Shown here: positions 19,763 through 40,350 of the stretch, piece by piece
Layout of the letters: every line of letters begins with the position of its first letter
Numbering within the stretch: position 1 is the stretch's first letter
Virus record (IMG/VR): IMGVR_UViG_3300045988_141150
Length of the DNA stretch: 40,350 nt
DNA from: a virus
Reading direction: 5' to 3' (one strand)
Position numbers and translations under genes: made by a program
Notes under the pieces: generated by a model
What the model saw: the letters and a program-made list of their open reading frames with translations, nothing else
What the model was told of the DNA's origin: nothing
The model's database searches: none

Positions 19763-19835
19763 ATTTATGTAAGGTAAAGGAAGAAATACTTCCTAAAAAT
19801 AAAATTGTTATTTATGAAAGGTTAAGGTAAAAATT

Positions 19836-20597: not shown

Positions 20598-20813
20598 GTG
20601 AATTGGGAAGAGATTGATTCATTTAAGGATAAAGTCGATCTTATTGTAGCATTTGAAGATATGCTTACCCGCAATGGATGTAATATTGATGTAAAGTATT
20701 ATTTTGCTTATCCTGCTACTACGTGGGCAGAAGTCCGCGTTCTCCTTGATCTTGGAGTTAGCGAACTTTTCATCGGGGCACCGCTTACATTTGATTTAAG
20801 ACAATTAAATTAG
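20598..20813 (+). CDS. Hypothetical protein of 71 aa with a GTG start. It may read through its TAG into the gene at 20835..21245.
   Basis: The ORF is in the track and ends in TAG. The downstream ORF is in the same frame, 7 codons later. Confidence 0.45.
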   Translation: MNWEEIDSFKDKVDLIVAFEDMLTRNGCNIDVKYYFAYPATTWAEVRVLLDLGVSELFIGAPLTFDLRQLN

Positions 20814-20834
20814 CAAGCAAAAGTTCCAATTCGT

Positions 20835-21245: not shown

Positions 21246-21296
21246 AAAAAATAATGTTATAATATAAATATAAGATAAAAGATAGGAGAATAAACT

Positions 21297-22403: not shown

Positions 22404-23704
22404 TTAAATTTTTTCACGGTCATTTAATTTATGAATGGCCGGAAAAGGTATCTTTTTCCTTAGATGATAAAACTAAAGAGCATCGTCTTGAAGAGTTTCT
22501 TGAAACAATTAATTATACTTATAATAATGAAGACTTAAAGGATTTTATTTCAGTAAATAAAGAAGGATTCTTTAACAATACAGTTATAGATACTTATTTC
22601 TATAAAGATAAAAAGATTCCAAGAGGAATGAAATTAGTTAAGGCTTTTAAGTATTTTGAAGAGAATCCACGCTCTTTGGAAGATATTCAGAATTACGCAA
22701 GTCGTATTATCCAAGAGGACAAGATTGAGGGAACATTATGTTTCTCAGTTCATCCTTTGGATTTTTTAAGCGTAAGTGAAAATACTTATAATTGGCGCTC
22801 TTGCCATGCACTTGACGGCGAATATAGAGCAGGAAATTTATCTTACATGGTAGATAAAAGCACTTTTATTTGTTATTTGCGCGGAGCAGAGAATCAGAAA
22901 CTTCCGCATTTCCCTGAAGATGTTCTTTGGAATTCTAAGAAATGGCGTATGCTTCTTTACATGGAAGATAAGCGACGTGGTTTAATGGCTGGTCGTCAAT
23001 ATCCTTTTATGACAACCAATGCTTTAATTAAAATTAAAGATATTATCAATACTTTTGATAAGACTTTTCAGTTGCGTGAATGGGTAGATGGAGGTATTAA
23101 TACTGTTTCTAATAGGATGAGCACTACTTCTTTTGATGAAGAAACTATTGGATTATCCGAGACATGGATTCCTATTTTATCTCGTTTATATCCTATTAGT
23201 GATATTGTTGAAGATATTGGCGAGCATACTCTTCAATATAATGATTTGCTTTATTCTTCTTGCTATTTACCCATTTATAGTTTAAAATTGTATTATTATC
23301 CATTAGAGACTGATCTTCCTCATTGGTCTATTGGTGGCGATGTCCCTTGTTTACAATGCGGTAAAACTATTATCGAAAGTGGAGAATATATGCGATGCGG
23401 AGACTGTGAATTCAATTATGGAGTAAACGAAGATGATAATTACGGTTATTGCGCTTGTTGCGGTTCTCGTATAATCCTTGATGAAGCAAATTCCGTAGGC
23501 GATGAGAATGAATTGGTTTGCGATAGTTGTGCAGATACTTATTGTAAACGATGCGAATGTTGTAATAATTTATATTATACAGAAGATATTCACTATCATA
23601 AAGGAACTGATATGTATTTATGTCCTTGGTGTTTTAGAGATGCTGATGAAGAAAAAGTTAATAATTTTAGGTCTTTAAAAGACTTTATACATAATTTTAG
23701 TTAA
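22274..23704 (+). CDS. Large protein with C-terminal zinc ribbons. It is a paralogue of the gene at 18141..19745.
   Basis: ATG at 22274 follows a GGAGGATTAGTC RBS, within track ORF 22253..23704. Confidence 0.6.
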   Translation: MSYDFDIESIKEQFNKVISYSQGISNPKTEELFERFLEAKKDLIKFFHGHLIYEWPEKVSFSLDDKTKEHRLEEFLETINYTYNNEDLKDFISVNKEGFFNNTVIDTYFYKDKKIPRGMKLVKAFKYFEENPRSLEDIQNYASRIIQEDKIEGTLCFSVHPLDFLSVSENTYNWRSCHALDGEYRAGNLSYMVDKSTFICYLRGAENQKLPHFPEDVLWNSKKWRMLLYMEDKRRGLMAGRQYPFMTTNALIKIKDIINTFDKTFQLREWVDGGINTVSNRMSTTSFDEETIGLSETWIPILSRLYPISDIVEDIGEHTLQYNDLLYSSCYLPIYSLKLYYYPLETDLPHWSIGGDVPCLQCGKTIIESGEYMRCGDCEFNYGVNEDDNYGYCACCGSRIILDEANSVGDENELVCDSCADTYCKRCECCNNLYYTEDIHYHKGTDMYLCPWCFRDADEEKVNNFRSLKDFIHNFS

Positions 23705-23716
23705 GGAGAATTAGAT

Positions 23717-24022
23717 ATGGCTAAAGGTACAGTAGCTAAGGAACAGATCGCCAAGAAAATGGCGGAAGTATTTGGCGCTGATTGGATCGGCGAGCGAGAT
23801 AAAAAGTATTATCTTTGGGCTAACGAGAATGGTGAGCGAATTCAAATTGCTATTAGTATGACATGCCCAAAGACTCCGGTTGGTGAAGCAGGTGCAACCA
23901 CGGATTCAAATGTTTTGAATTTTGAAGATGGGGCAACCGCAGGTGGAGAAACCCCGATTGAAATTACTACAGATGAAAAGAAAAATGTTGCTGATTTGAT
24001 GGCAAGATTAGGATTGAATTGA
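23717..24022 (+). CDS. Hypothetical protein of 101 aa.
   Basis: The ORF is in the track, with an AAGGAGAATTAGAT RBS. Confidence 0.55.
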   Translation: MAKGTVAKEQIAKKMAEVFGADWIGERDKKYYLWANENGERIQIAISMTCPKTPVGEAGATTDSNVLNFEDGATAGGETPIEITTDEKKNVADLMARLGLN

Positions 24023-24027
24023 TTTAA

Positions 24028-24062
24028 AGAGTAATGTCATTTGACATTACTCTTTTTTTTTG
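24028..24062 (+). terminator. Rho-independent terminator at the early/late boundary.
   Basis: Hairpin AGAGTAATGTCA-TT-TGACATTACTCT followed by a run of nine T. Confidence 0.75.
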
Positions 24063-24194
24063 TTATTATTTATTTAGTAAAAATGATAAATGGTTAGGTT
24101 TAACCGAAATTAAAAAATAAAATAAAATAAATTTTTAATAAAAATAGGATATATAGTATCCTAATTATTTATTTTATTAGGAGGAATTTTAATA

Positions 24195-24611
24195 ATGACT
24201 GAATTAAATAATACCTTTAAGGTAGTTGTTACTGACAATGAAGGCAAAGAGACTGAAAGTATTATAACTGGTCCTATTGTTTTTTCTACAAGTATTAATG
24301 GAGAAACTAGCGGAATTAAATATACTTTTAGACTTCGTGAATATTCAAAAGGCTATGATGTTGAAACTTTAAGTTTACCTAAAGTTTCTGCTCAGCTTAT
24401 TGGAAATTTTGATCGTTCAAAGGTTGCTAAAATTGGTGTATATTATTTAGCTGTTTCTAATGATTATAGAAAAGTTTTTGAAAAAAATGTTGCCAATATT
24501 GCTGAAATGGTATTCGAATATAATAATGATATTGGAGATAAGTCATATGCTAATAGTTATAACACTATAGCAGAGCTTAATATAACTTATACTCCCGAGG
24601 CTGTAAATTAA
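24195..24611 (+). CDS. Hypothetical protein of 138 aa, the first gene of the late block. It contains no TAG.
   Basis: The ORF is in the track, with a TAGGAGGAATTTT RBS. Confidence 0.55.
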   Translation: MTELNNTFKVVVTDNEGKETESIITGPIVFSTSINGETSGIKYTFRLREYSKGYDVETLSLPKVSAQLIGNFDRSKVAKIGVYYLAVSNDYRKVFEKNVANIAEMVFEYNNDIGDKSYANSYNTIAELNITYTPEAVN

Positions 24612-24624
24612 GGAGAGAATATAA

Positions 24625-25347
24625 ATGGCTGGTAGTCGTATTTCATGGAGCGATGTTCGCGCTCTATATGATACTTTAAATACTGCTTAGACTCGTTTTT
24701 CTCAATCTCGCACGGCTGCTCCCTCAAATGAGGGGCGTCGTACGAGAGAAAGTGACATTACTACTTTAAAAAATGAAATTGAAAATTTAAGAAATGTTTC
24801 TTATGTAGGAACTTAGGCTACTTTTTCTAATTTTACCGCTCCAAGAGCTAATGAACTTATGAAACGAGTCCCTTTAGAGGAAATTAGAAGTAAACTTGAT
24901 ACTATAAATGGCATTTGCGCCTATGATGGAGCGAATTATACAAGCAATAATGGTTATCGTGGTGCTAACTATACAAGTAATAATAGTCAACGTTCTTCTT
25001 ATTATTCAAGTAATGATGCTCAACGTTCTTCTTATTATTCAAGTAATAATGCTCAACGTGCTTCAGATTATTCAAGTAATAATGCTCAACGTTCTTCAGA
25101 TTATTCAAGTAATAATGCTCAACGTTCTTCAAATTATTCAAGTAACTATACTTATTATACTGCTAATTATTCAAGTAATAATGGTCATAGATCTGCTAAC
25201 TATAGTAGTAATAATGGTAATAGATCTTCTAACTATAGTAGTAATAATTCTCAACGTTCTTCAAATTATTCAAGTAATTATACTTATAGAAGTGCTTATG
25301 CTTCTAGAAGTTCAAATCGTAGTGGCGCTGGTAGAGTACGCTCTTAA
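24625..25347 (+). CDS. Repeat protein of 240 codons with two in-frame TAG. About 12 tandem 11-residue repeats of the form (A/S)xY(S/T)SNNxQRS follow a 100-residue N-terminal region. It is a candidate multi-core RiPP precursor.
   Basis: ATG follows an AAGGAGAGAAT RBS. The frame is continuous with track ORF 24859..25347 through TAG codons at 24688 and 24814. The underlying nucleotides form a 33-nt tandem repeat. Confidence 0.55.
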
Positions 25348-25378
25348 TTTTTTGAGAAAAAGGAGTTTTATAATATAA

Positions 25379-26878
25379 ATGTTTAAAGAAATGGATATTA
25401 GAGCAATATCTTTAGTTTCTTCATGTGGATGTAATTTACATTGTAAATATTGTCTTATTGAGAATACTTTAAATAATTGCTCTGCAAATTTACAACATGA
25501 AACTATTAAAGCTTTAAATGATGGTACTTTTTTAAATAATGTAAAAGGTATTTTTAAACGTTTAAATCTTGATAGATATAAAATAGAATGTTTTACTTTA
25601 TGGGGTCAAGAGCCTACATTGACATTACATCTTCTTACTGATCATTTGGAAGATTGGTTTAATTATTTCCCAAATATTAATCATATTGACTATTCTACTA
25701 ATGGGATGGATTTTCCTGAAAGAACTGTTAATTTTATTAAAAAGGTTGATGAATTAGCAAATAATGAACTTGCTTTAGAAGTTCAATTCTCTTATGATGG
25801 CACTTACTCAACCAATAATATTAGAAATGCTAATAATGAAAAAATCTTTGAGACTGCTTCAACTGTAATTAAAGAATTAAATAAAATTAAATTTCATAAT
25901 GTAAATGTATCTATTCAATTACATGGTGTTCTTTCTGGAGCTTTAATTCATGAACTTAATACAACTCAAAAAGTTCATGATTATTATAAAGATTTAGATA
26001 ATTTTGGATTTGAATTAGCTGATATTAATCTTAATTAGAGAGTTGAAGTAAATAGTAGTGTATCTATTTGCCCTGAGAATCCAAGAGATGGATCAGTTGA
26101 TGAACGTATTGAATATGAGTCTTTCTTACAACGCATTGTTAATATTGATGTAAGTGATTTTCATGACCCACATCTTCCAGTTAGTATTATTATTGGTTAT
26201 CGTCATCTTTATGAAGAAGTATTTTCTGATTTACATGGATTTACTGGAGAAGATCGTCCAATTACGCCCCAAGAATTAATGCGATTAGTTATGGAAGGAA
26301 ATCAAGAAGCAATTACTGTAGCTTCAAGAAATAATTTTTGTAGTGGTAATTTTAATGAATTAAAATTACTTTATGATGGTACTATGATGTCTTGTCAAAA
26401 CTTTATGTTTGATCTTGATGGTAATAATGTTAAAGATGATGGTACTATTGGAGCACAATTGAGAAAAGACACTCGTCGCACTAAAACTGATTGCATTAAT
26501 CTTTTAACTGATAGTGAAGAAGATATTAATAAAGTTATATATAAATATAATATGTATAAAACACATTCCTTCCCATTTATGTTTCAAGCAACTGTAAATA
26601 CTTTACAAATGCTTAATGAATGCAATCAATTAAATTCTATTTACAAGTATAATCCTGATAAATTATTAAGATTGGCATTAATTGCAACAAAAATTGATGC
26701 TTGTACTTATAATAATTTTATTTCTTCTGGTAGCGCGTTGTTAAGAAGTGTAGGCACTTTAAGAACTCAATCAGCACTATTTATGTATGTAGATAGAGAA
26801 AATAATTTACTTAAACCCGAAGAAGAATGGTTCCGAAATACTGAAAATATGAATGAATATAGAGGAGAAAGTAATTAA
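25379..26878 (+). CDS. Radical SAM enzyme of about 499 codons with one in-frame TAG at 26036.
   Basis: It carries CGCNLHCKYC, a CxxxCxxC motif. Track ORFs 25379..26038 and 26279..26878 are in the same frame, joined through a TAG with no TAA or TGA between them. Confidence 0.6.
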
Positions 26879-28281
26879 TGAATATTAGTGAAGGTTGTCA
26901 ATTAGATAATAATAAATATTTTGAAAAATTTATAGATAATTATATTTTTAATAGGGATCACCAAGAGGAAGGATACTGGATTAATGGAGAGTCTTTTGAG
27001 CTTATTATAAGACCCGAATGTAATCAACAATGTGAATATTGTTATGTTGCACGGTATGGAGATAAACTCTATCCGATGGAGAAACGCGCCGATAAGGAAA
27101 CTCTTGTTCATAATACAGATATTATTTTGAATTATATCTTTAAAGAAAGAAAAGTTTTATTTCATGAAATGGAACTTTTTGCTGGAGATTTATTTTATGA
27201 TGATATTGGATTTGAAATTCTCGAATTAATGTTTAAATATTATAAAGAATTATTTGATGAACATCCAAATATTTTTAATTTCCATCCTCGTATTGTAATT
27301 CCTAATAATTTTAGTTTTGCTATTGATGATAAAAAAGCTAAAAAAATGGAAGAGCTTTTAGCTAAATTTAAAACTATCAATATGGAAATAAGCCTTTCTT
27401 GTTCTATAGATGGACCTTATAATAGTGTGCGCGAGCGCGATAAAGATGATAGTTATTATACTAAAATTCTTGAATTCCTTCAAAGAAATCCTTGTGGTAT
27501 TCATCCTATGATTTCTCCAAGTAATATTGAGAGTGCTATTAAGAATTTTGATTGGTGGGACGAACAATATGAAAAGTATAATCTTGCTGGTGAAGACATT
27601 CATGATTTTCAACCTATGTATTTGGAAGTCCGCAATGATGAATGGACTGATGAGAAATTAGATCATTATCTTGAATTTTTAACTCATATGCTTGAAGTAA
27701 GATTTCATAAAAATGGTGAGTCTGTAGATAAATTGGCAAGACATATTTTCTTAGGAGATGGAAAAGAAGGTTCTTTACCTTGTCTTGGTAATTATGACCC
27801 TATTGGATTAACTTCTACTTGGAATAGTGAAGAATATACTTGCGCGATTTCGCATTAGACTTGTCTTTATGTGGCGAGTTTTGAATTTGCGCCTTGCCAT
27901 AGAACTTCTTATCCTCAGTTTCTTGGTGGACGTCTTGATGTAAAAGATGACAAAGTAGTTGGTATTACTGCAATTAATCCTACTGTGTATAGTGTAATTA
28001 AAACGAATAATACACATATGAATATTGGTTGTTTAACTTGTCCTTTTGATCCTTATTGTTTAAAAGGATGTTTAGGCGCTCAGTATGAAGCCACAGGTGA
28101 TTTATTTGTTCCCGGTGAAAGCGTTTGTAAATTACATAAAACACATTTAACTTTTTTAGTAAAGACTTATTGTGAGTTGGGATTAACTAAAATTGCAGTT
28201 GAAAAAAATTATTTTAAGAGTGAAGCAGATAAAGAAAAATGGCTTACTTTATGTCGTAAATTGGGGTATTATAATGATTGA
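26878..28281 (+). CDS. Radical SAM/SPASM-domain enzyme of about 467 codons with one in-frame TAG at 27856.
   Basis: It has an N-terminal CNQQCEYC radical SAM motif. Its C-terminal Cys cluster CLTCPFDPYCLKGCLG...VCKLH has the SPASM pattern. Track ORFs 26878..27858 and 27871..28281 are in the same frame. Confidence 0.6.
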
Positions 28282-28576
28282 AGAAATGAAAAGACAAATT
28301 CAACACTTAGATGATACTTTTGATCCTTCTAATGTTGGAGATTATAAAGATTTATTATATGTAATCTATTTAAATTGGATTGAAAATAATGGAGAAAACG
28401 AAGAAGTCAATTCTCTTATTAACAATTTAATTAAAAGAATTATTGATTCTAGCATTAATGATAATAATAATTGTGATAATTGTAATGAAGATGAAGATCC
28501 TAATATGAGTGAAGATTATTTAATTTATCGCCATTTCTTAGGATATAAAATTCCTGGCTATTGGCGTAATCATTAA
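28274..28576 (+). CDS. Small acidic protein of 100 aa. It could be an accessory protein or a precursor.
   Basis: ATG lies in the frame of track ORF 28193..28576 and overlaps the upstream TGA. Confidence 0.45.
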   Translation: MIEEMKRQIQHLDDTFDPSNVGDYKDLLYVIYLNWIENNGENEEVNSLINNLIKRIIDSSINDNNNCDNCNEDEDPNMSEDYLIYRHFLGYKIPGYWRNH

Positions 28577-29157
28577 TGTTAATTAATTTATATAATGCTC
28601 GTCAAACTTTATTAAGATCAGTAAAGTTTGACGAGCGTGAATGCGATGATATTGTTTTTGGATTAAATTTTCCAAAAGAAATTACTTTTTGCAAAATTGT
28701 AAATAATTCAAATGATATAGAATATTCTTCATTAAATTATCTATATAGTCAATTAAAAGATTTAGAATATAAAGATATAAAAATTATTGAATTAGTTTTT
28801 AATCAAAAACAAAAATTTACGTTTGAATCTACAGTAAAATCTATTTTTTATAGAACAATGTTATATTCAAGTTAGGGACAATTGGAATTTAAATTATATT
28901 TAACTTTACGATTTGAAGAAGAACATCCAATTATTTACGATAAAGAAGAATAGATTTTAAAGTGTGACAAAAATTGTAAACAGTTAAATAGAAAAATACA
29001 TCGTTGTGAATTTTTTCATAGTGATTTAAATGATATAAATGAAATTTGTACGGAATGTTTTTTGTAGGAAAGAGATAACCAAATAAAAGAATTGGTTAAT
29101 TATAATAGAGATATTATAAATGTTTTGGAGAATAAATATGGAAATAGATAGAACTAA
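28576..29157 (+). CDS. Hypothetical Cys-containing protein of about 193 codons with four in-frame TAG.
   Basis: It extends track ORF 28576..28875 through TAG codons to a TAA at about 29155. Confidence 0.4.
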
Positions 29158-31216
29158 AAATTATCAAGGGATTCCTCCTTATACTAATCCAATATGGAAA
29201 TCGGTTTATGATGGTGTTAGTTTAGAAATGCATATTGTAGATCATTGTAATCTTAATTGCGCAGGATGTAATCATTTTTCCCCTTTAGCAGAACCTTGGT
29301 ATATTGATTTAGATGATTTCCGTGATCAGATTACTTTTGCTTATAAAAAAATTCCAAATATAAAACTTTTTATGATTTTAGGTGGAGAACCTACTTTGCA
29401 TCCAAAATTATTTGAAATATGTTAGATTGCTAGAGAAGTTTTCCCAAAAAATAAAGTAGAAATTAAAATATTAAGCAATGGGTGTCATTTACAAGATGCT
29501 TTTAAACATGAGAAAGAATATCAAGATATGGGAGTAATATTTGATATTACTACTTATGGGAAATATACTGATCATAAAGCGGTAGAATATTTAGACAGTC
29601 ATGGTTTAGGTTTTAATCATAATTCAAGATTATTTATGCGACAATAGCTTGTAAATGAAGCAGGAACTACTGATATAAATGAAGTATATTTTCATAAATG
29701 CCCGCATTAGTTACCTTGTTTTACTTTAAAAAATTATAAAATTTATATATGTCCTTTTTCTGCACATTTGGATATTTATAGAAAAAAATATAATGTAAAT
29801 ATTCCAGAAGATGAAAGTGATTATTTGCGATTAGAGGATATAAATAATTTAGATGATTTACATAATTTTATTTTTAAGCCTAAAAATATTTGTAGATATT
29901 GCGATGGAACTATGTCTAAAGCCTCTTGGATTTGGCACAAATATTATGATACAAAATCGGAATTTATAGTTCCAATGGAAGATGCTTATTTTAGAGATTA
30001 TGATTTTTATTTAAAATTAGTTAATGATAAAGAAAATTTTTTAGAAAATTATTAGTTATTTAAAGAAAACAGATGCCCAATTGAATTTAGATATAATACT
30101 TATTATTTAAAAAAATGTTTTACTCGTTTTATTGATGGAAAAATGGATATTATAATACCTTATTATAATATGAATGATTAGCAAATTATTAATTTGTATA
30201 ATAATTTATCTACCCAAACAATTATAAAAGATTGTTGTGTATATTTTATTAGCGACCATTCTTTCTATGATAAAAAACTTATTGAGATATTTGATGAAGC
30301 GAGTTTTCCTTGTTTCTTTTTTAAGAATTTAAAACGAAAAGGACCAGGTCTAACTCGTAATTTAGGATTAGAATATTCTTTTAATAAATATGTGTTATTT
30401 TGGGATTCTGATGATTTATTCCCAAATGATAATGTTTTAGAAATTTTATATAATTCAATAAAACATAATGAGAAAGATTTTGGAGTATTTAAAATAGCTA
30501 ATACTGATAAATCAGTTGAAAAGATTAATTTAATTCTTAAAAGAGATTTTCTTAATAAAAATAATATAAAATATTCAAAATTTTTCTTTGGAGAAGACAG
30601 TATTTTCTTGGATAGATGTGATATTTATGGTGAATCTTATGAGTTAGAAGACTAGAATTTAGGTCTTTATATAACTTAGTTAGAAGACAATCCTAATTGT
30701 TTATCTCATTCTAATTCTAACATGGTAATTACAGCATATATTAATAAAATAATTGTATTTTTTGCTAATTTTATTGATGTTTTGAAATTAGAAAATATTG
30801 ATGAAAATCGTAAACAAAGTACTTTAAGACGGAATCTTTATAGAATTATTAATGAAATAAAATCAATAAGTGATTTAGATTCTTCTTTTTATGGATATGA
30901 AAATAATTATTTTTTAGAAAAAATTCTTCTTTTAATTTATTATATTTTATATACTATGTATAATTTATATAGTAACAAAGAAGATTTTAATAATATTCCC
31001 AATTTGTGTAATTTAGATAAACAAATTATAGAAGATATCAAAAGTTAGAAAATTAAATTTAGTCTTCTAAGAGGAGAATGTATAACTAATTTTGATGATA
31101 TTAAAAATGAAATTTATCCATTGTTAAATTATCTTAACAATGAATTATGCTATGTGCCTACTTATGAATGGTTTCTGAATTATTTAGATGGAAAAGGAGA
31201 GAGTATTTATGATTGA
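29138..31216 (+). CDS. Continuous 692-codon frame with 9 in-frame TAG and no TAA or TGA. It has an N-terminal radical SAM domain (CNLNCAGCNH, GGEPTLHP and a C-terminal CRYCDG) and a central GT2 glycosyltransferase domain (IIIPYYN...GPGLTRNLG...FWDSDD). It is one fusion protein or two to three cistrons.
   Basis: Track ORFs 29120..29425, 29768..30055, 30194..30655 and 30722..31048 all share one frame and are separated only by TAG. The frame ends at a TGA at 31214. Confidence 0.5.
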
Positions 31217-31391
31217 AACTTATCAAGAATATAAAGAAAAAGTTTATTTTCTTCTAAATAATTTTTTAGATTTTACTAAAGGAGATAAACCTTATTTATT
31301 TAATATGCCTTCAAAATTAGGCAATCTTCCTAATCTAAATGAATATTTATATTTTTGTTTTAATAAATCTGATGCAGGAGAAAATAAATGA
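31209..31391 (+). CDS. Small protein of 60 aa.
   Basis: ATG follows an AAAGGAGAGAG RBS, in the frame of track ORF 31188..31391. It ends in TGA. Confidence 0.45.
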   Translation: MIETYQEYKEKVYFLLNNFLDFTKGDKPYLFNMPSKLGNLPNLNEYLYFCFNKSDAGENK

Positions 31392-31930
31392 GGTTTACTG
31401 ATTATCATTTTGGATAGGCAGAGTCTGACTTTTGGACTTTATTAAAAGAATTTCTATTAAGGTTTGATCCCAATAGTATTTATGATTTTTGGATTTTATT
31501 TATTTATTTTTAGTTAGGTATTATTAGAAAAGATAGATTTATCATTTATTAGGTATAGTATATTTTAAAAGAAAAAATAGATTTTGAAGAAATTAATGAA
31601 GTAAATTTTAATACAATTATTCCAATAGAAAAGATAAATTTATCTAGTTTAAAAGATTGTATTTGGATAAGCTATTGGATTTGTTAGTATAATTATTAGA
31701 ATGATGAAAATTTAATTTTAATTTATAGTGAGAAAATATTTAATAATCTTACTAATATTTTTGAGCCGGATATTGTTATAGATATTCCAATAGTGTAGTA
31801 GAGTAATAAAATATGTAAAATGTGCGGTTTAGAGTCTAAATCTAATGGATAGAATATACCATTTTTTAAAATAAATGATAATAAATATTTATGTCCTAAT
31901 TGTTATTATTTATTAAAATTAAATGAATAA
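31388..31930 (+). CDS. Hypothetical protein of 180 codons with a C-terminal CxxC...CxxC zinc ribbon. It has about 10 in-frame TAG.
   Basis: ATG overlaps the upstream TGA. The frame is free of TAA and TGA for 543 nt in a region of about 25% GC. It is invisible to the standard-code track. Confidence 0.4.
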
Positions 31931-32023
31931 TTATTAAAACCTACTTTTATAGTAGGTTTTAATTGATTTTTAATAAAAAATAATGTATTATAATTATAAG
32001 ATAAATGAAAAGGGTGTGTTTAT

Positions 32024-33808
32024 GTGAATAATTATAATCAACATTATAAAGAAATAAGTCCTATTGAGACTGTTAATAATATTAAAAATTTTTTAGAAGG
32101 ACGCGGATTTACTTGTGTTGAGGAAGCTTTACGACAAGAACAATCAACTACTTGGAGTCTTGTATTAAATCTTGAATACAAAGGACATTTTGTGCTAAAA
32201 ACTTATGGCAAAGGTGTTACAAAAGAATTCGCCAGAGCTTCTGGTTATGCGGAAATGTATGAGCGTTTTTGTAATGGAATGCACTATCTTTGTAATTCTT
32301 TTCTTTGTGCGGAAAAAATTGAATTAAATAGAAAAAATTATGGTTATTCTTTGTTTAAAAATGAAAAGCCTTTAAGTTATAAAGAGGCACTTGGAGGAGA
32401 AGATACTCTTTTATATAAACTTTTTGATCGTTTGAATAAGAAAGATAATGGTTTATTAGAGGATTATTTTAAAACTATTTATAATAATGAATTTTTTGGA
32501 ATACCATTTAAAGGAGTCAACATTAATAAAACTTTATATATGGATCCTCGTCTTCTTCAACGTTATCATGGTAGTTCGGGAATGGCAGCCGGCAATACTT
32601 TTAATGAAGCCTTAAATCAAGGTTTATCTGAAATTTTCGAGCATTATGTTTTAAGTAATTTTTATATTGATATTGATAATAAAGATTTTTATTTTTATGA
32701 TACAGATAGTATTAAAGATGAAAAATTAAAAAATATTATTAGTGCGATTAAATCTCATAATAATAACTTTTATATTATTGATATGTCAAGAACTTATAAT
32801 GTGCCTGTTATGGTAGCAATTTTGATTAATAAATATAGTGGTACTGTAGCTATTAATTTTGGTGCTTTCCCTGTATTTGAAATTGCAGTTGAGCGAGTTT
32901 GTACTGAAATGTATCAAAATTGTTTTTCTTTTGATACAAGAAAAACTTCAGTTGTATCTCCGTATTATTCTTTAGATAAAGAAGATATGGTTATAGATGG
33001 CGGTTCTTGTATTACAAATCTTAATACTTTTCCTGAGAGTTTATTCTTGAATAAGAAATTTGTAAATACTATTAATAAAGATGTATTTTTATCTTATACT
33101 GATAAAAATTACTCTAATGATGAAATCTTAGAGCATAATAAAAAGATTGCTACTAATATTGGAGCAGATATTTATTGTGCTGATGTATCTTTAATTGATA
33201 CCGTATCTGCGATTAGTATTTATGTTGATAATCTTGACGGGCTATGGAAATCTTTCTTTGATAGATGCCAAGGAGTTAAAGAAACTGGAGAAGCAATTAC
33301 TATAACTAAAAATAAACATTTGGCCATTAAAAACTATTTAAATAATAAAGATAAAGTATATGATGTAATTAAATATTGTCTTGATTATTATAATATTACT
33401 TTTGACAAAATTGTAGATAGATTTTGTGGTTTACTTACTCATGGAGATCAATTAGTTGCTTATAATAATAAAAATATATTATTAACACCTAATGAGATGT
33501 TTGTTAAAAACCTTTATATGGATGCAACAGGATATTTATTAGAAGATGAAGGATTTTCTTTAGATATTTCAGTTAGTTGTTTTTATACTTATTATAAAAA
33601 ATATTTAACTTTATTAGCATATGTTCACAGTAGAAAATATACTAAAGAAGATATGATTAAAATTTTCAAAGAATTTGATTATACTTTTACTGATGAAGAT
33701 TTTAAACATATTACGGATAGAAAATATTTAGTAGAAAAATGTATTTTAGAGCCTATGTATAATACATTTAGAAGCAATGATTTTAAAGAAATGATTAAAA
33801 ATTATTAA
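32024..33808 (+). CDS. YcaO-domain protein of 594 aa.
   Basis: HGSSGMAAGNTFNEALNQGLSEIFEHY matches the YcaO ATP-binding signature, which has the form xGSNGLAsGNTxxEAxxQGLxExxER. The ORF is in the track and has no TAG. Confidence 0.65.
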   Translation: MNNYNQHYKEISPIETVNNIKNFLEGRGFTCVEEALRQEQSTTWSLVLNLEYKGHFVLKTYGKGVTKEFARASGYAEMYERFCNGMHYLCNSFLCAEKIELNRKNYGYSLFKNEKPLSYKEALGGEDTLLYKLFDRLNKKDNGLLEDYFKTIYNNEFFGIPFKGVNINKTLYMDPRLLQRYHGSSGMAAGNTFNEALNQGLSEIFEHYVLSNFYIDIDNKDFYFYDTDSIKDEKLKNIISAIKSHNNNFYIIDMSRTYNVPVMVAILINKYSGTVAINFGAFPVFEIAVERVCTEMYQNCFSFDTRKTSVVSPYYSLDKEDMVIDGGSCITNLNTFPESLFLNKKFVNTINKDVFLSYTDKNYSNDEILEHNKKIATNIGADIYCADVSLIDTVSAISIYVDNLDGLWKSFFDRCQGVKETGEAITITKNKHLAIKNYLNNKDKVYDVIKYCLDYYNITFDKIVDRFCGLLTHGDQLVAYNNKNILLTPNEMFVKNLYMDATGYLLEDEGFSLDISVSCFYTYYKKYLTLLAYVHSRKYTKEDMIKIFKEFDYTFTDEDFKHITDRKYLVEKCILEPMYNTFRSNDFKEMIKNY

Positions 33809-33819
33809 TAGGAGATTAT

Positions 33820-34698
33820 ATGAATATTAATTTTAATTGCCCTGAATTTTACTATGGGATTGAAGTATATGATAAACTTTTTGAATTACAAGAAATTGCT
33901 CCAGAAGCATTTTATCCAGAAGCCAAGGTAAAGTATATATATGGCTGTCTTCCTAATATGATTTGGAATGGTGGCGGATTTATGGATGGACGTCCAGAGC
34001 ATAATATTGATTATCTTTGCGCAATGCGTGATTTTTATGAAAAAAATAATATTATTTTACGTTTTACATTGACAAATCCGCTTTTAGAAGAAACTGACGT
34101 TTATGATAGATACTGTAATGAAATGTTAAAACTTTTTGATAATGGTATTAATGAAATTATTGTTAATTCTCCTATTCTTGAGCGCTATCTTCGAGACAAA
34201 TTTCCTAATTATAAGTTGACTAAAAGTATTACGGCAGCAAAAGAAGATTATGATTTTGTAAAAGCTCTTGATAATTATGAAAGCATTGTCCTTCCTCGTC
34301 GTCACAATAGAAATTGGGAACTTCTTGATTCTATTCCAAAAGATAAAAGAGAGAAAATTGAAATTCTTGCTGATGAAAGTTGTCCTATTGATTGTCCTCG
34401 TCTTTATACTCATTACAATGTTTTTGCAAATTTTAGTTTGTTTAAAAAAATTGATGACTCTCAGCGTAATTGTACTACTATGAAAAATAATGGCGCAGTT
34501 TTTCCTGAAATTGATAATAAAGATATGATTTATATGGATGAAATTTTAAATACTTATTTACCAAAAGGATATAATAATTTTAAGATTTCTGGGCGCAATT
34601 GCGCTGACCATTGTGCAAAATCTATTACTCCGTATTTTTTTAAACCAGAATATCAATTAGAAGGTTTTTGCGAGTTGCTCGATATTGGTTTGAGTTGA
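33820..34698 (+). CDS. Hypothetical protein of 292 aa, possibly a partner of the YcaO protein.
   Basis: The ORF is in the track. It begins 12 nt after the YcaO stop and has several Cys pairs. Confidence 0.5.
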   Translation: MNINFNCPEFYYGIEVYDKLFELQEIAPEAFYPEAKVKYIYGCLPNMIWNGGGFMDGRPEHNIDYLCAMRDFYEKNNIILRFTLTNPLLEETDVYDRYCNEMLKLFDNGINEIIVNSPILERYLRDKFPNYKLTKSITAAKEDYDFVKALDNYESIVLPRRHNRNWELLDSIPKDKREKIEILADESCPIDCPRLYTHYNVFANFSLFKKIDDSQRNCTTMKNNGAVFPEIDNKDMIYMDEILNTYLPKGYNNFKISGRNCADHCAKSITPYFFKPEYQLEGFCELLDIGLS

Positions 34699-34702
34699 TT
34701 TT

Positions 34703-34741
34703 AACTCCTTACTATTTTATTTAGTAAGGAGTTTTTTTTTT
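34703..34741 (+). terminator. Rho-independent terminator.
   Basis: Hairpin AACTCCTTACTA-N7-TAGTAAGGAGTT followed by a run of ten T. Confidence 0.75.
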
Positions 34742-34822
34742 ATTTAACCAGATTAAATTAATGACTTCTTATAAATTTTTAAATTTTATAGAAATAATAA
34801 AATTTATAAGGAGGTCATTTAA

Positions 34823-35377
34823 ATGGCAATTCCAAAAGCAATAGAACATATGCGTAGTGGAAGTGGCGGTTTAGAAATTATTCCAATTATTTCTACTGAT
34901 GGATTAACTTACACAGGAACCGCAAAATCTATTAAAGAATATAAAGACGGAATGATTATTGGTCTTATTCCAAATATGAATAATATTGCGACAAATCCAA
35001 TTACTAATATAACGATAAATATAAATAATTTAGGAGCATTAAAATTAACTCAATATTATATTAAAAAAGAACATTCTAATAATGGATTAGGGTGTTGGCA
35101 CAGCAATACTGCTGTAGAAGCCAATTTTTTATATAAAGATGAAGCTTTTATTGGATAGATACAATTAGGGTCATCTAGTGGTGATTATATTTTACCTATT
35201 AATCCAGGATTAGACTTAGCTTAGATTACTAATGGTTCTATTGGGTCTAATTTGTCTGTCACTGCTAATTCTTCTTATTTAAACAATAATATTTTAAGAA
35301 ATATTAAAGTATCTACTTCTGCTCCCACCGCTTCAGACGGAAATGTTGGAGATATTTGGATTTAGTATTTCACTTAA
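34823..35377 (+). CDS. Putative virion or tail protein of 184 codons with three in-frame TAG.
   Basis: Track ORF 34823..35158 continues in frame through TAG to a TAA at 35375. An AAGGAGGTCATTTAA RBS lies upstream. Confidence 0.45.
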
Positions 35378-35393
35378 TAGAGGAGGAATTTAA

Positions 35394-36809
35394 ATGCCAA
35401 ATACTTATAATCCTTCTGGAACTTCTATAACAGATTATTCTTCTATTAAATTTATTCCAGGAGATATTATTAATAGTAGCTATTCAGGAGCGGTAAATCC
35501 AGTAAAACTTCCAACGGGAAATTATCAATTAGAATGTTGGGGTGGCTATGGTGGAATTGGTTATTCTGGTTCTTTAACTTCATCAACAACAACTTCATGG
35601 ATATATATAGGAACTAATAATGCAACTAGTTATTTTAGCATTAATAATGATTCAAATTATTATTTCCGTCAAGATGGAAATGACTGGATAGCTACAAATG
35701 GCGGTATACATTCAAGTACTGCAACCACTACATTAACTTGTACTTCTGCGGGAACTTACAAGATTTATTATTATTATCAGACTGAAGTAAATTGTGATAA
35801 AGTTACTTTAACTGTTGGAGGATCAACGGTTTTAAATGCCGTATCGGGGTCATAGTCTTTAACTGAAGCTGGTAGCTATTCTTTATCATCAGGGTCTACT
35901 ATTGTAATGACTTATTCTAAAGATAGTTCAGTAAATGCCGACAATGAAGAAGTTTATTTTTAGATTTAGAAATAGGAGAGTAATACTACTTATACTCCCA
36001 CAAGTTCAAAAAATAGTTATTGGGGTGGAGCAGGAGGATATTCTACAGGAATTCTTTCTTTATCAGCCCCTACTGTTATCTATTTGTATACAGGAGGTTA
36101 GGGTAATTATTCAAGTAATAGTGAAAAAGGAAAAGTAGTTAGTGGCGGATTTAACGGAGGAGGTAGCTCTAGAATCAGATGGTATACTTCTGCTTATACA
36201 TCAGGAGGTGGCGGAGGTGGCGCTTCCGATGTTCGTATAGGCCAAGACTCTCTTTACGCCCGTGTAATTGTTGCTGGCGGTGGTGGCGGTGGCGCAGGAG
36301 AAAGCAATTCTTCTATTAAATAGGGCGGTGGATTAACTGGTAATTCTGCTGTTGAAGAATATAAAGCTACGTAGACTAAAGCCGGAACAAATGGATCTTT
36401 TGGCCAAGGGGCTGATGCTAGTGGATCTGCCAATTATAATTATGGTCCCGGTGGTGGTGGTGGAGGCTGGTACGGTGGTGGTGCTTCTACTAATGTTAGT
36501 GACAGTTCCGCCGATTATAGAACTTATAATGGCGGAGGTTCTGGCTATGTATATACTTCATCAACTGCCTCTAATTATCCTTCTGGCTGTTTGTTAAATA
36601 GTAATTATTATTTAACAAATGCTTCTACTGCTATAGGATATAGTAAAACCAATCCAGGAGGGCAACATGGGTATATTCGTATTACAGTATTATCTCCATT
36701 AAATGTAAAAATTAATCCTAACACCTATGCTCCTATTAAAGCAATATATACAAAAATAGATAACACAACTTGGAAAGGAGGAATGACTACATGGCAACCT
36801 ATGACTTAA
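35394..36809 (+). CDS. Glycine-rich tail-fibre-like protein of 471 codons with 7 in-frame TAG.
   Basis: Track ORFs 35394..35855, 36352..., and 36591..36809 share one frame. The N-terminus contains LPTGNYQLECWGGYGG. The C-terminus contains SGYVYTSSTASNYPSGCLLNS...GYIRITV. Confidence 0.55.
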
Positions 36810-38128
36810 CTTCTTCGATTCCTTCTTCTTCTTCTTTAAGAACGGGGGATATATTAAATTGTCCTTATAGTGGATCTGCTAAATCAATTACTCTTCCAAA
36901 AGGCACTTATAAATTAGAATGTTGGGGAGCACAAGGTGGAAATGCAGGTTATTATAGTTATGTTCATTCAACCCCTAATGGAGGAAAAGGTGGATACTCT
37001 ACTGGTGTAATCACTTTATCTTCAAGTGTTATAGTATATCTTTATACCGGAGGACAAGGAGGAAGTACTATCGGGAATAAGCTAGACTAGAATTCAGTAG
37101 CTACAGCACCTGGTGGATTTAATGGAGGTGGCATCGCTAATCAAATGGGAGCCGCTGGTGGTGGTGGAGCTTCTGATATTCGCATAGGCCAAGATTCTCT
37201 CTATGCTCGTATAATCGTCGCTGGAGGCGGTGGTGGTGGAGGCAATGCGAGTAGTTCTACTTTATTATCTTGTGGCGGAAATGGTGGAGGAACTACTGGT
37301 GGAACTCCACCTAATTAGCACAATAATAGAACCCCAGGAAAAGGAGGAACTCAAACTGGAATAACAGCTAGTCGTTCATCATCAATTTCTGCGGGATTTG
37401 GTAATGGAGCTGGTGGTACGGGAGAAAATCTTCGTGGAGCCGGTGGCGGTGGCTGGTATGGTGGAACTATGGGTGAAAATTCAACTGGCGGAGGTGGAGG
37501 TTCTGGTTATGTATATACTTCCTCAACTGCTTCTAATTATCCATCTGGTTGCTTATTGAATAGCACTCATTATCTTAGTTCTGCTTCTACAATAGCTGGC
37601 GACACTTCATTCACTTCTCCAACAGGGTCATCTGAAACAGGTCATAGCGGAAACGGGTATATAAGAATTACTATTTAGTCTATTGTTAACTGGGCTTATT
37701 CTACTGTATCAATTCCTGCTCCTACTTATAGTAAATAGGATACTTCTTCTTGGACTTTATCTCCGAGTGCTTGCAGGTATTTTTCTTTTACCCCTACTAT
37801 TTCAGGAGATTTTATTGTTTATTCCAATTCTTCAATAGATACTTTTGGCTATTTAACATCAAATATTGTTTCTCTTAATAGTAGTGGATAGCCTTCTTCT
37901 AATATTTTAGCTAGTGATGATGATTAGGCAAAAAAATATGGTGGATCTGGAAGTAATTTTGGTATTTGTTATAAAGTTACTGCTGGAACTACTTATTATA
38001 TATATGTTAAGCCTTATCGTGATAGTACAGCAAATAGTTCAGTATATTTAACTTATTATATGGCTCATCCTGACAGTAGAGTATATGTAAAAACAGATAG
38101 TACAACATGGAAATTAATAACCAATTAA
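36791..38128 (+). CDS. Glycine-rich tail-fibre-like protein of 445 codons with about 8 in-frame TAG. It is a paralogue of the gene at 35394..36809.
   Basis: It shares LPKGTYKLECWGAQGG, SDIRIGQDSLYARIIVAGGGGGG and SGYVYTSSTASNYPSGCLLNS...GNGYIRITI with the upstream gene. It ends at a TAA at 38126. Confidence 0.55.
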
Positions 38129-38165: not shown

Positions 38166-38299
38166 ATATTTATAAAATAAAGAAAGACCTTTACAGCAAA
38201 AATAACTTCCAGAATAAACTAATGATTAAGTCATAATCCTTTAAGATTAAAATAATGGTTCAACTCCATTTTCCGGACAAAGTTAAGGTCTTGTTTTTA

Positions 38300-38374
38300 T
38301 AGGCGTCTGGTGTAACGGTAGCATGCGGGTCTCCAAAACCTTGCGGTGTGGGTTCGAATCCTACGACGCCTGCC
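38300..38374 (+). tRNA. tRNA-Trp with anticodon CCA.
   Basis: Acceptor stem AGGCGTC pairs with GACGCCT over 7 bp. The T arm is GTGGG-TTCGAAT-CCTAC. The anticodon loop is CTCCAAA. The discriminator is G and CCA is encoded. Confidence 0.7.
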
Positions 38375-38396
38375 ATTTTAGACAAAAAGAACTTTT

Positions 38397-38425
38397 TTGA
38401 TTTTATTAAAAATATATAATATAAT
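38397..38425 (+). promoter_or_regulatory. Family-A promoter.
   Basis: TTGATT, a 17-nt spacer, TATAAT. Confidence 0.6.
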
Positions 38426-38459
38426 ATATATAGAAAGTTGAGAAAGGAGAAAATAAATA

Positions 38460-38642
38460 ATGAATATTGAAGTTGGTAATTCTTATTGTTTTGTCCCTTA
38501 TCGTGGTCGTTGTTATCGTAGACAGTATCTTAAATGTACTGTTATTCGAGTATTAAATTATCAGATTGAAGTCCTTGATGAGCATGGTGAAAAATGGCTT
38601 CTTTCAGAAGATGATTTAATGCCAATTCAAAGACCTTATTGA
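38460..38642 (+). CDS. Small hypothetical protein of 60 aa.
   Basis: The ORF is in the track, with an AAAGGAGAAAAT RBS, and sits between two promoter copies. Confidence 0.45.
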   Translation: MNIEVGNSYCFVPYRGRCYRRQYLKCTVIRVLNYQIEVLDEHGEKWLLSEDDLMPIQRPY

Positions 38643-38667
38643 CATTTTATAAAAAATATTATATAAT
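38639..38667 (+). promoter_or_regulatory. Family-A promoter: TTGACA, a 17-nt spacer, TATAAT.
   Basis: It matches the motif. Confidence 0.6.
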
Positions 38668-38726
38668 ATTTATATAAGATGAGGAAAGAAAAAAGAAAAT
38701 AAAAAACTTTGGGTAAAAGAGAAAAG

Positions 38727-38755
38727 TTGATTTTTTAAAAAAAATATAATATAAT
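38727..38755 (+). promoter_or_regulatory. Family-A promoter: TTGATT, a 17-nt spacer, TATAAT.
   Basis: It matches the motif. It drives the interrupted tRNA. Confidence 0.6.
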
Positions 38756-38794
38756 AAATATATAAAGTAAGGATTTTAAAAGTCCTTCTTTTAT

Positions 38795-39342
38795 GGGAGT
38801 GTAGCTCAGTTGGTTAGAGCACGCGGCTGTTTACTTGACCTTATCATTTTCTTATAAAAAAATGAAATGAATAGTAAACAAAAAGGTAATATTACCGAGC
38901 TTGAAACAATGTTAGCATTTATGAAACTTGGTTATAATGTTCTTACTCCTTACGGAGATTGTGAGCGTTATGATTTTGTGGTTGATGTAAATGGTAAATT
39001 TATTAGAATTCAAGCTAAAACATCGCGAACCGAAGATGAAGGAGCTTCTTTTATTTTTTCTGGTAGAAGTTGCCATAGAAAAGATGGAAGAATAGTTCAT
39101 CATCAATATACTAACGAAGAAATTGATTACTTCGTAACTACTTTTAATGGAAAATGTTATTTGATTCCAGTGGAAGAGTGCGGAGCAGATAAAAGACTTC
39201 GTATTCTTCCACCTAAAAACAATCAAGTAAGAGGTATTACTTGGGCGAAAGATTATGAGTTGGAGGAAGTAGTAAGAAAATGGTAAGCTGATGTGTAAGC
39301 AACCGCGGTTTGTCGTGAGTTCGAGTCTCTCCTCTCCCGCCA
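38795..39342 (+). tRNA. Interrupted tRNA gene, tRNA-Asp-like with an inferred anticodon GUC. The 5' half is 38795..38830 and the 3' half is 39300..39342. A 469-bp insertion in the anticodon loop separates them.
   Basis: The 5' half reads GGGAGTG-TA-GCTCAGTTGGTTAGAGC-A-CGCGG-CTGT. The 3' half reads CAA-CCGCG-GTTTGTC-GTGAG-TTCGAGT-CTCTC-CTCTCCC-G-CCA. The anticodon stem CGCGG pairs with CCGCG perfectly. The acceptor stem pairs 6 of 7. The D loop resembles tRNA-Asp. Confidence 0.55.
38867..39286 (+). CDS. PD-(D/E)xK nuclease of 139 aa encoded inside the tRNA insertion. It resembles Hjc and I-Ssp6803I and is a candidate homing endonuclease.
   Basis: The ORF is in the track. The motifs ELETML (E), GDCERYDFVVDV (D) and IRIQAKTS (Q/E-x-K) occur in the order and spacing of the Hjc / I-Ssp6803I fold. 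Confidence 0.55.
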   Translation: MNSKQKGNITELETMLAFMKLGYNVLTPYGDCERYDFVVDVNGKFIRIQAKTSRTEDEGASFIFSGRSCHRKDGRIVHHQYTNEEIDYFVTTFNGKCYLIPVEECGADKRLRILPPKNNQVRGITWAKDYELEEVVRKW

Positions 39343-39582
39343 TTGGGGCGTTAACACGGATTTTGTAAGTTTAAACTACCACCGATCGAAAGAGTATGTG
39401 GCTTGCGGAAAACGCCCGACTAAATATAAGGAAGCGAAGTAAAACTTATTGTGAAATAGTAGCTATACTCACATTAATCAAGGCTATGGGTTCTGGGAAT
39501 CCAAAAGAGTAAAAGTTGGTTCGAGTCCTAACGATTGACGAAGTTCGAATCTTCGCGATGTGGGTTATAAAACTCTTTATTT
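39343..39582 (+). ncRNA. Structured non-coding region with tRNA-like fragments of uncertain nature.
   Basis: It contains the long-range helix GGGGCGTT...AACGCCC at 39346 and 39411. It also holds two T-arm-like motifs, GTTGG-TTCGAGT-CCTAAC and CGAAG-TTCGAAT-CTTCG, but I cannot fold a complete canonical tRNA. Confidence 0.3.
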
Positions 39583-39659
39583 GCTGGTGTAGCCGAATTG
39601 GCATAGGCGAATGATTTAGGATCATTAATCTGAAGGTTCGAGTCCTTTCTCCAGCACCA
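39583..39659 (+). tRNA. Class-I tRNA with a short variable loop and anticodon UAG. The anticodon would read CUN codons as Leu, but amino-acid identity is uncertain.
   Basis: The acceptor stem GCTGGTG pairs with CTCCAGC 6 of 7. The anticodon arm is AATGA-TTTAGGA-TCATT. The T arm is GAAGG-TTCGAGT-CCTTT. The discriminator is A, CCA is encoded, and the variable loop is 5 nt. Confidence 0.6.
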
Positions 39660-39746
39660 GTCCCTCCCTGGGAATGCGTTGAAGGCTTGCGAACTTTGAA
39701 CGCAGGTGGTTGGCAACTCCATCTATACATAAATAAGTTGCGTTTT

Positions 39747-39825
39747 GGGCTTCGGGACTGCATGGCGTGGTCGTCTGTCTTGCACACAGAAAATCAGGTG
39801 AGTTCGATTCTCACGAGGTCCACCA
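39747..39825 (+). tRNA. tRNA-Ala with anticodon UGC.
   Basis: The acceptor stem is GGGCTTC with GAGGTCC and includes a G3:U70 pair. The anticodon arm is TCTGT-CTTGCAC-ACAGA. The T arm is GTGAG-TTCGATT-CTCAC. CCA is encoded. Confidence 0.6.
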
Positions 39826-40225
39826 TTATATGGTTATATGGTGTAAAGAGTAAGCACGGCGGTTAAATAAACCGCAAATTTAGGAGCATTGCCTAATATA
39901 ACCGATTATATGATTGGTGATAAAAGCAGCCAGAAATATTATCTTATTAATTAAAACTTAATACAATATACTAAACGATATAATAGATAAGGTATATTAA
40001 TAAAATTTATATACAATAAGATAATATATACAAAATGCTAATAGTGATTTTGGTTCCAGCGCTAGGAAAGTTTTTCCCACTACGAAGAGAAAATTTGAAG
40101 AGTTAGCGTAGTCTTGATAATTATGTCTTAAATAATTATCCCTTTTTGGCTCATAACCTTTTTTTGGATAAAAAATTATATTATATTTACCGTGATGCCG
40201 CGGAGGGACGGCCGCCCTAAAGTGC

Positions 40226-40350
40226 GATTAAGATTAGAAAGAAGTTGGAAGATCTTCTTAAAACTTCCATTAGATTAGAAAGAAGTTGGAAGATCTTCTT
40301 AAAACTTCCATTAGATTAGAAAGAAGTTGGAAGATCTTCTTAAAACTTCC
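40226..40350. repeat. 41-bp direct tandem repeat, ATTAGATTAGAAAGAAGTTGGAAGATCTTCTTAAAACTTCC, present in at least three copies and running off the window end.
   Basis: Copies sit at 40226, 40269 and 40310. Each unit contains the nested inverted repeats GAAGTT..AACTTC and GAAGATCTTC. Confidence 0.8.

Follow-up and report, generated by a model that had tools for sequence, protein, structure and literature searches.

The tRNA gene at positions 39583-39659 on the plus strand of the window (the whole stretch of viral DNA analysed here, 40,350 nt of the IMG/VR record IMGVR_UViG_3300045988_141150) very probably encodes a leucine decoder with a short variable arm, a class I tRNA-Leu with the anticodon UAG that would be charged by the enzyme of the host. 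Judged by its sequence, it belongs to a large and diverse lineage that resides in phage tRNA arrays and on chromosomes of Actinomycetota. The original prediction had left two choices, an unusual short-arm isoacceptor for leucine or some other identity; the former is supported, the latter is not. The adjective "unusual" has to be dropped, as tRNAs of this kind are widespread in phage contigs, annotated in cultured phages and chromosomal in Actinomycetota. Similarly, the rule that bacterial tRNA-Leu is class II turned out in our scans to be often broken in phage tRNA arrays and in Actinomycetota.

ARAGORN calls a tRNA-Leu(tag) of 77 nt, encoded CCA included, at exactly these positions, and the Rfam tRNA model scores the same stretch with 60.5 bits (gathering score 29, E = 5.7e-12), which confirms the prediction of a class I molecule that has G37 next to the anticodon UAG, a variable loop of 5 nt and A73. 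The cloverleaf drawn by ARAGORN comprises an acceptor stem of 7 bp with a single mismatch (U6.U67), a D stem of 3 bp, and anticodon and T stems of 5 bp each; the T loop reads UUCGAGU. The D arm (39592-39608), GCC-GAAUUGGCAUA-GGC, combines its 3-bp stem with an 11-nt loop that contains A14, A15, G18 and G19, as in bacterial tRNA-Leu. Infernal aligns the anticodon loop UUUAGGA (39615-39621) as U32 U33 U34 A35 G36 G37 A38, which, in agreement with ARAGORN, puts the anticodon at 39617-39619 and G37 at 39620. The variable loop AAUCU (39627-39631) ends in U48, the partner of A15, and since it has only 5 nt, the tRNA is of class I. The discriminator A73 (39656) and the encoded CCA complete the molecule (39656-39659), and all universal tRNA positions are intact. 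A different anticodon stem, which had been named as the outcome that would speak against the prediction, was not obtained by ARAGORN, by Infernal or by thermodynamic folding. The MFE fold is not a cloverleaf, yet it retains the same anticodon hairpin and therefore offers no alternative anticodon; its overall shape carries no weight against the cloverleaf, which is backed by ARAGORN, by the Infernal alignment and by the covariation within the family.

Apart from the arm, the tRNA looks like a leucine acceptor. Its anticodon is one of the leucine box and is preceded by U33 in a 7-nt loop, and the leucine-type core (U8-A14, A15-U48, the placement of G18G19, a 3-bp D stem and a long D loop) is complete. 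The long variable arm of class II is missing; what is found instead is the short-arm combination of a 4-6-nt variable loop, a leucine anticodon and a leucine-type D arm. With the canonical class II tRNA-Leu(UAG) it shares the anticodon, A73, U8-A14, A15-U48, G18G19, the 3-bp D stem and the 11-nt loop; the difference lies in the variable arm, which has 13-17 nt there and 5 nt here. The anticodon CUA of an amber suppressor is absent. Two identity elements had been proposed for inspection. A73 is present, also in all of the 107 family members listed; G3:U70, the wobble pair of tRNA-Ala, is absent, the pair being U3-A70. The U6.U67 mismatch in the acceptor stem counts against the reading as a leucine decoder.

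The resemblance of the D arm to bacterial tRNA-Leu prompted a search for further class I tRNAs with the anticodon UAG. The pattern used, TTGG..YTTAGG..GGTTCRANTCC, fixes G18G19, the loop YUUAGG, the class I spacing and the T loop. Among the 120 matches listed for viral contigs, at least 118 loci carry an ARAGORN tRNA-Leu(tag) of 73-78 nt; these amount to at least 107 distinct sequences and at least 84 clusters at 85% identity, while by our own estimate a handful of matches would be expected by chance. In an alignment of 107 distinct viral sequences, i.e., the window gene and 106 others, 99.0% of the cells are paired; shuffling lowers this figure to 63%, and sliding of the 3' partners to 36-48%. 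Covariation scores 0.926 versus 0.207 in shuffles, none of 500 shuffles reaching the observed value; 18 of the 20 base pairs vary on both sides, and covariation is seen in all four stems. The variable region has 5 nt in 100 of the 107 sequences and 6 nt in seven. Of course, the conservation of the anticodon loop, of G18G19 and of the T loop within this alignment is uninformative, because the search pattern had fixed them. U8, A14, A15, U48 and A73, however, are invariant (107/107), though the pattern had left them free. The set of an E. coli-type LeuRS has been summarised as A73, A14, A15-U48 and the placement of G18G19 (PMC6614811), and the invariant positions represent this identity set minus the long arm. 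The closest D arm outside the short-arm family is that of class II tRNA-Leu, which matches the one in the window at 16 of 20 positions, and the motif A14-A15-Y-U-G18-G19 occurs in 41% of class II leucine tRNAs versus 5-25% of other isotypes.

The same pattern, applied to prokaryotic contigs (one genome per species), yields at least about 100 short tRNA-Leu(tag) genes. Among the matches listed, many are the sole tRNA in an 8-kb chromosomal stretch of Actinomycetota, e.g., in Kribbella, Micromonospora, Pseudonocardia, Kutzneria and Amycolatopsis; others lie within arrays of 7-29 tRNAs. The chromosomal genes of Actinomycetota (L131-L250; loci outside the window are denoted by L numbers) have a near-identical sequence, ggggccgtagcccaattggcagaggc..., across many genera. 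In these lineages class I tRNA-Leu(UAG) appears to be the ordinary chromosomal form.

The most telling observation comes from close relatives of the phage. Further contigs of its group, 124-197 kb long and all from a single gut virome data set, were found by scanning with other genes of the array. The 77-nt class I tRNA-Leu(UAG) is carried by the window and by L107, L130, L251 and L345, the copies in these relatives being identical or distinguished by a compensatory change in the D stem, C11-G24 to U-A. In L256, L257 and L258, the corresponding slot between tRNA-Asn and tRNA-Ala is occupied by an unrelated class II tRNA-Leu(UAG), which has 85 nt and A73. When these three are aligned with the window, the 237-nt spacer upstream is 96.6-98.3% identical and the stretch from the 3' end of the tRNA through the end of tRNA-Ala is 95.8-97.6% identical, whereas the tRNA body is just 48% identical; the exchanged segment extends from the first bases of the tRNA through the CCA. 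Since the flanks are nearly identical and two unrelated tRNA bodies share one slot, class I and class II tRNA-Leu(UAG) are interchangeable alleles in this phage group. Short of biochemistry, no other observation made here argues as strongly as the swap that the short form would serve as tRNA-Leu(UAG). It is conceivable, if unlikely, that phages keep the short tRNA-Leu, a mobile and mainly phage-borne lineage traded against class II in cassettes of precisely the size of a tRNA, in order to escape a host action on the long arm of class II; the swap would then be the trace of an arms race and not of neutral turnover. In this doubtful scenario, the phage might evade, e.g., a defence nuclease of the host that targets tRNAs, or might become independent of a host factor.

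As a leucine decoder, the tRNA would be functional in its short-arm (type I) form and would be expressed from the phage tRNA array. It should read CUA and CUG, possibly all four CUN codons via U34. G37 would be modified by TrmD; G36-G37 is the methylation target of this enzyme in CUN-reading tRNAs. Charging would be achieved by the host's LeuRS via A73, the leucine-type D arm and the elbow (U8-A14, A15-U48, G18G19), with no need for the long arm. Leucylation by the enzyme of a gut host is, however, not to be taken for granted, because the type I tRNA-Leu(CAA) of Streptomyces coelicolor, which is leucylated by its own LeuRS, is not charged by the LeuRS of E. coli (Nucleic Acids Res 2019, PMC6614811). 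Moreover, A73 is no identity element in the Streptomyces system (PMC6614811), and in view of both facts the recognition rules may differ from those assumed here. The S. coelicolor tRNA has a 5-nt variable loop, like the one in the window, and exists beside class II isoacceptors for leucine, and its leucylation is experimentally documented; it differs by its anticodon, CAA instead of UAG, and by being chromosomal, not phage-borne.

A related doubt concerns demand. Per 1000 codons of the window, the leucine codons CTA (2.3) and CTG (2.2) are rare, whereas CTT (25.7) and TTA (31.2) are common; a demand for tRNA-Leu(UAG) is therefore not obvious in the 40 kb seen. One might suspect that the gene is not meant for decoding at all. 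It could be a copy in decay, could act as a decoy that occupies a tRNA-targeting nuclease of the host, or could be an RNA-processing signal of the array. The low codon demand would agree with this, as would the U.U mismatch within the acceptor stem, the company of non-canonical elements in the array (a tRNA with a 6-nt anticodon loop and a tRNA-like element with an 8-bp acceptor) and the rejection of one type I tRNA-Leu by E. coli LeuRS. Nevertheless, such a role is quite improbable: the copies in L107, L251 and L345 are unchanged or changed in a compensatory way, no universal tRNA position is disrupted, the CCA end is encoded, and the covariation in all four stems throughout the family suggests purifying selection on a working cloverleaf.

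Whether the codons in question mean leucine can be judged from homologous proteins. In homologues of the YcaO protein (n = 48), the columns opposite CTT contain 33% leucine and 69% L, I, V, M or F; the respective figures are 30% and 65% opposite TTA and 10% and 32% for the background. The two CTA columns are hydrophobic, one rich in L/I/V and one in Y/F/L. Homologues of the fused radical-SAM/GT2 protein (n = 84) have 72% of these five residues in CTT columns and 84% in the single CTG column; their two CTA columns are A/V/G and I/L/T. When the window is compared with L107, CTA stands opposite TTA, TTG, CTT or CTG in 10 of 17 aligned CTA codon pairs and opposite codons for Ile, Val or Phe in four more. 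CTA, CTG and CTT thus appear to behave as leucine codons and nothing points elsewhere, with the proviso that the sample for CTA, four alignment columns and 17 codon pairs, is small and lends low power to tests of CTA alone.

These data bear on a non-leucine identity of the tRNA, by which CUA and CUG would be reassigned as sense codons. A precedent comes from yeast mitochondria, whose class I tRNA-Thr1(UAG) inserts threonine at CUN; its anticodon loop is enlarged to 8 nt, its body derives from tRNA-His, and CUN codons stand at threonine positions in that system. A class I body with a leucine-box anticodon is the formal look of such cases, the rarity of CTA and CTG would lower the cost of a reassignment, and one of the four CTA columns is mostly A/V/G. 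The likeness to tRNA-Thr1, however, ends with class and anticodon. The loop here has 7 nt, not 8, the body is neither His-like nor Thr-like, U3-A70 stands in place of G3:U70, and the window does not place CUN at threonine positions, CTA being exchanged mainly with other leucine codons in the comparison with L107. In addition, no member of the family (107 of 107 listed) departs from A73 or from the leucine-type D arm, the same family provides single-copy tRNA(UAG) genes on chromosomes of Actinomycetota, and sister phages fill the slot with a normal class II tRNA-Leu(UAG). Reassignment is extremely improbable under these circumstances.

A part of tRNA-Leu(UAG) itself in reading in-frame TAG, a link that the title of the original prediction had suggested, is practically inconceivable: it has in its favour a coincidence of letters (UAG/TAG) and the fact that the gene lies some 1.5 kb past the recoded genes, but by the rules of base pairing a 5'-UAG-3' anticodon pairs with 5'-CUA/CUG-3' and not with UAG, both tools (ARAGORN and Infernal/Rfam) fix the anticodon unambiguously, and a tRNA(CUA) is conserved in seven related contigs. 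TAG recoding would be served by that separate, 90-nt tRNA(CUA) farther along the array, tRNA-Leu(UAG), the presumed leucine decoder, being uninvolved.

The recoding itself is real. The late genes had been said to need TAG decoding, and indeed the gene set used contains 43 in-frame TAG codons in a block at 20505-38128 (+), which is further supported by read-through calls and homologue columns, and none upstream; 25 genes of the window end with TAA, five with TGA and none with TAG. Reading TAG as sense joins many plus-strand fragments into long ORFs, and in L005, a contig with 98.6% identity, an independent gene caller produced TAG read-through proteins. Where TAG stands in the gene for the radical-SAM/glycosyltransferase protein (29120-31216), the homologues have polar residues (N, K, T, E, Q, D), and in a relative with 60-70% identity TAG is found opposite CAA, CAG, AAT or TAG. 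This would fit glutamine as the meaning of TAG without proving it; TAG = Gln has been reported for gut phages (PMC10607447).

The window was predicted to lack a suppressor loop of the form NU-CUA-RN, and this proved correct: neither strand contains such a loop, also when sought as YU-CUA-RN, that is enclosed by a stem and has a T loop after it. The window stops 691 nt past tRNA-Leu(UAG), inside a tandem repeat of 41 nt. In relatives the array goes on beyond this point with at least 14 tRNAs, namely Leu(CAA) and Leu(AAG), both class II, two Glu, Asp and Met, then Asn, Phe, Ser, His, two Ile, Pro and Val, and it ends with tRNA(CUA) and tRNA-Tyr. The conjecture that the suppressor lies elsewhere was therefore sound for the related contigs, and the other option offered, recoding by another mechanism, is not needed, given the conserved tRNA(CUA). 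In L260, a locus obtained by a protein query with 10-kb flanks, the array passes a gene for a GIY-YIG endonuclease and proceeds to the 90-nt tRNA(CUA) (10758-10847) and to tRNA-Tyr(GUA); the tRNA(CUA), which adjoins a 90-nt tRNA-Tyr, is also present in L340-L346. Its anticodon arm occurs in seven of the group's contigs, among them the ones from which L107 and L130 come, and only two positions vary among the 90-nt sequences across the group. L345 is the only locus with both genes, class I tRNA-Leu(UAG) and tRNA(CUA) being 8.3 kb apart in one array. The phage of the window probably carries the tRNA(CUA) too, if one may extrapolate from relatives that are ~95% identical in the tRNA region. The molecule has U1 opposite U72, G2-C71, G73, the loop CUCUAAA and a variable arm of 21 nt; its unpaired first base, G73 and U35 are glutamine-like features in terms of GlnRS identity. 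Long-armed tRNA(CUA) genes of a similar kind are seen in the unrelated viral loci L028 and L059. Beside the tRNA-Tyr/tRNA(CUA) pair of L341 (IMGVR_UViG_3300045988_110853), ARAGORN calls at 7726-7805 an 80-nt tRNA(UCA), which may read opal codons or may be spurious.

The array that surrounds tRNA-Leu(UAG) deserves some comments. The part within the window spans 38208-39905 and is co-oriented on the plus strand (ARAGORN with and without introns). Instead of the four tRNAs counted previously, it comprises six tRNA-like genes, five called by ARAGORN and one split by an insert of 469 nt. Their order is a tRNA with a 6-nt anticodon loop, tRNA-Trp(CCA), the interrupted tRNA (Asn/Asp), tRNA-Leu(UAG), tRNA-Ala(UGC) and a tRNA-like element.

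The first of these (38208-38278, 71 nt, Rfam 37.5 bits) lacks CCA, has C73 and displays a U1-A72 acceptor that resembles phage tRNA-Gln. It is kept in nine related contigs (e.g., L107 3997-4067, L130 6263-6333, L254-L259); the 6-nt loop is AUUUAA in eight of them, CUUCAA in the ninth, L254, and CUUUAA in the window. Infernal assigns the anticodon UUA (UCA in L254), and a shift by one base would result in the leucine anticodons UAA and CAA. With UUA it would read UAA and UAG and, having a Gln-like acceptor, could be considered as the TAG decoder. We rejected this candidate because TAA ends 25 of the 30 genes, because L254 keeps in-frame TAGs despite its loop CUUCAA, and because a canonical tRNA(CUA) exists in the group.

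The interrupted tRNA (38795-39342, ARAGORN with introns) is split in its anticodon loop. Nearly the entire 469-nt insert is an ORF for a PD-(D/E)XK homing endonuclease (38867-39286; Pfam PDDEXK_5, 1.4e-31), so that the core of a group I ribozyme would not fit; Rfam recognizes no intron either, and splicing of the tRNA is doubtful. ARAGORN takes the gene for tRNA-Asp(GUC); the intact alleles in L107 and L256 are tRNA-Asn(GUU), and in L258 the insert sits in a tRNA body of the Asn type. The 237-nt spacer that follows (39346-39582) contains no Rfam family at E < 10 save noise, and its fold has a z-score of -1.05. Downstream of tRNA-Leu(UAG), a 79-nt tRNA-Ala(UGC) (39747-39825) is identified by G3.U70 and A73; it has a variable region of 7 nt and an odd D arm, and Rfam yields only a weak tRNA-Sec match of 27 bits. 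In L130 its place is taken by another tRNA-Ala(UGC), which has 77 nt (4135-4211), an apparent second cassette swap in the array. The last element (39831-39905), which ARAGORN calls Ile(aat) and in relatives Thr(agt) (L251 10033-10107), exhibits an 8-bp acceptor stem and A33; its T loop, AGCAUUG, is non-canonical, and CCA is lacking. Since the T stems of the window and L251 differ by compensatory changes, the element seems to be a conserved structure other than a decoding tRNA. At the very end of the window (40231-40350), the 41-nt unit is repeated in perfect tandem 2.9 times, and short metagenome contigs break there too.

How does the putative tRNA-Leu(UAG) compare with what is on record? A blastn search of GenBank phages with the tRNA alone or with the tRNA region disclosed no close relative, nor did anything there match when 8 kb of the window served as the query; with a 534-aa protein, tblastn gave only matches of 26% identity, and an exact look-up of two ORFs from the left end retrieved no record. 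A concatenated query of ten family members, in contrast to the single gene, matches annotated tRNA-Leu genes in several GenBank phages: Mycobacterium prophages, Sinorhizobium phage Phosso, Bacteroides phage DAC17 (Crassvirales) and Vequintavirinae of Enterobacter and Pantoea. Unannotated matches to the same query are found in Vibrio phages (VspSw_1 and relatives) and in Enterobacter phage ENT3. ARAGORN recognizes a 76-nt tRNA-Leu(tag) in DAC17 (MT074138) and one of 78 nt in Enterobacter phage vB_ExiM_F1M1E (OL744211). Comparative genomics of Mycobacterium has further revealed an acquired tRNA cluster with a short-variable-loop tRNA-Leu(TAG) that is unlike the chromosomal isoacceptor (PMC6582537). 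This cluster, of Mycobacterium mucogenicum/phocaicum, as well as DAC17 and vB_ExiM_F1M1E, have the anticodon, the class I architecture, the location in a mobile tRNA array and the annotation as tRNA-Leu in common with the case described here, yet their sequences are so different from the window tRNA that blastn does not pair them with it at E < 0.01. The short arm was commented on only in passing, for the Mycobacterium cluster (PMC6582537), and our literature search retrieved no paper that has the short-arm tRNA-Leu of phages as its subject. The window gene is a further example of a known but under-described kind of tRNA-Leu, and in this sense the finding is ordinary. The Sup-CUA tRNAs of TAG-recoded gut phages (PMC10607447; bioRxiv 10.1101/2021.08.26.457843) reside in the same kind of array and differ by their anticodon, which is CUA and not UAG.

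Some other features of the window may be mentioned. A block on the plus strand (21297-34698) resembles a peptide-modification (RiPP-like) cluster inside a phage. It comprises a peptidase (21297-22403), a Ser/Asn/Tyr-rich repeat protein (24625-25347), three radical-SAM proteins (25379-26878, 26878-28281 and 29120-31216, the last one fused to a GT2 glycosyltransferase), the YcaO protein (32024-33808) and a weak U32-peptidase-like protein (33820-34698), and is followed by two glycine-rich (ALK_LTK_GRD), fibre-like proteins. Codon usage switches sharply between a left block (5071-20273), in which TTA is nearly absent (0-3 per gene), CTT and CTC are favoured and the GC content is ~37%, and the TAG-recoded right block (20505-38128), where TTA dominates at 20-30% GC. 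An AT-rich intergenic element of 65-95 nt (ttgaca...tataat-like) is present in at least six copies (7556-7622, 10485-10547, 11566-11630, 15801-15895, 19716-19786 and 38395-38470) and also in L107 and L130; it is probably a phage promoter.

For the window, a false lead is removed: its tRNA(UAG) would be an ordinary leucine tRNA, and the recoding would be served by a conventional tRNA(CUA) down the array. In general, when annotation pipelines or readers meet a tRNA(UAG) with a short arm, they should not conclude that codons are reassigned. Two results exceed the routine: class I tRNA-Leu is a common component of phage arrays, and at one locus class I and class II replace each other exactly. The precise swap may be regarded as a natural experiment on the purpose of the long arm of tRNA-Leu.
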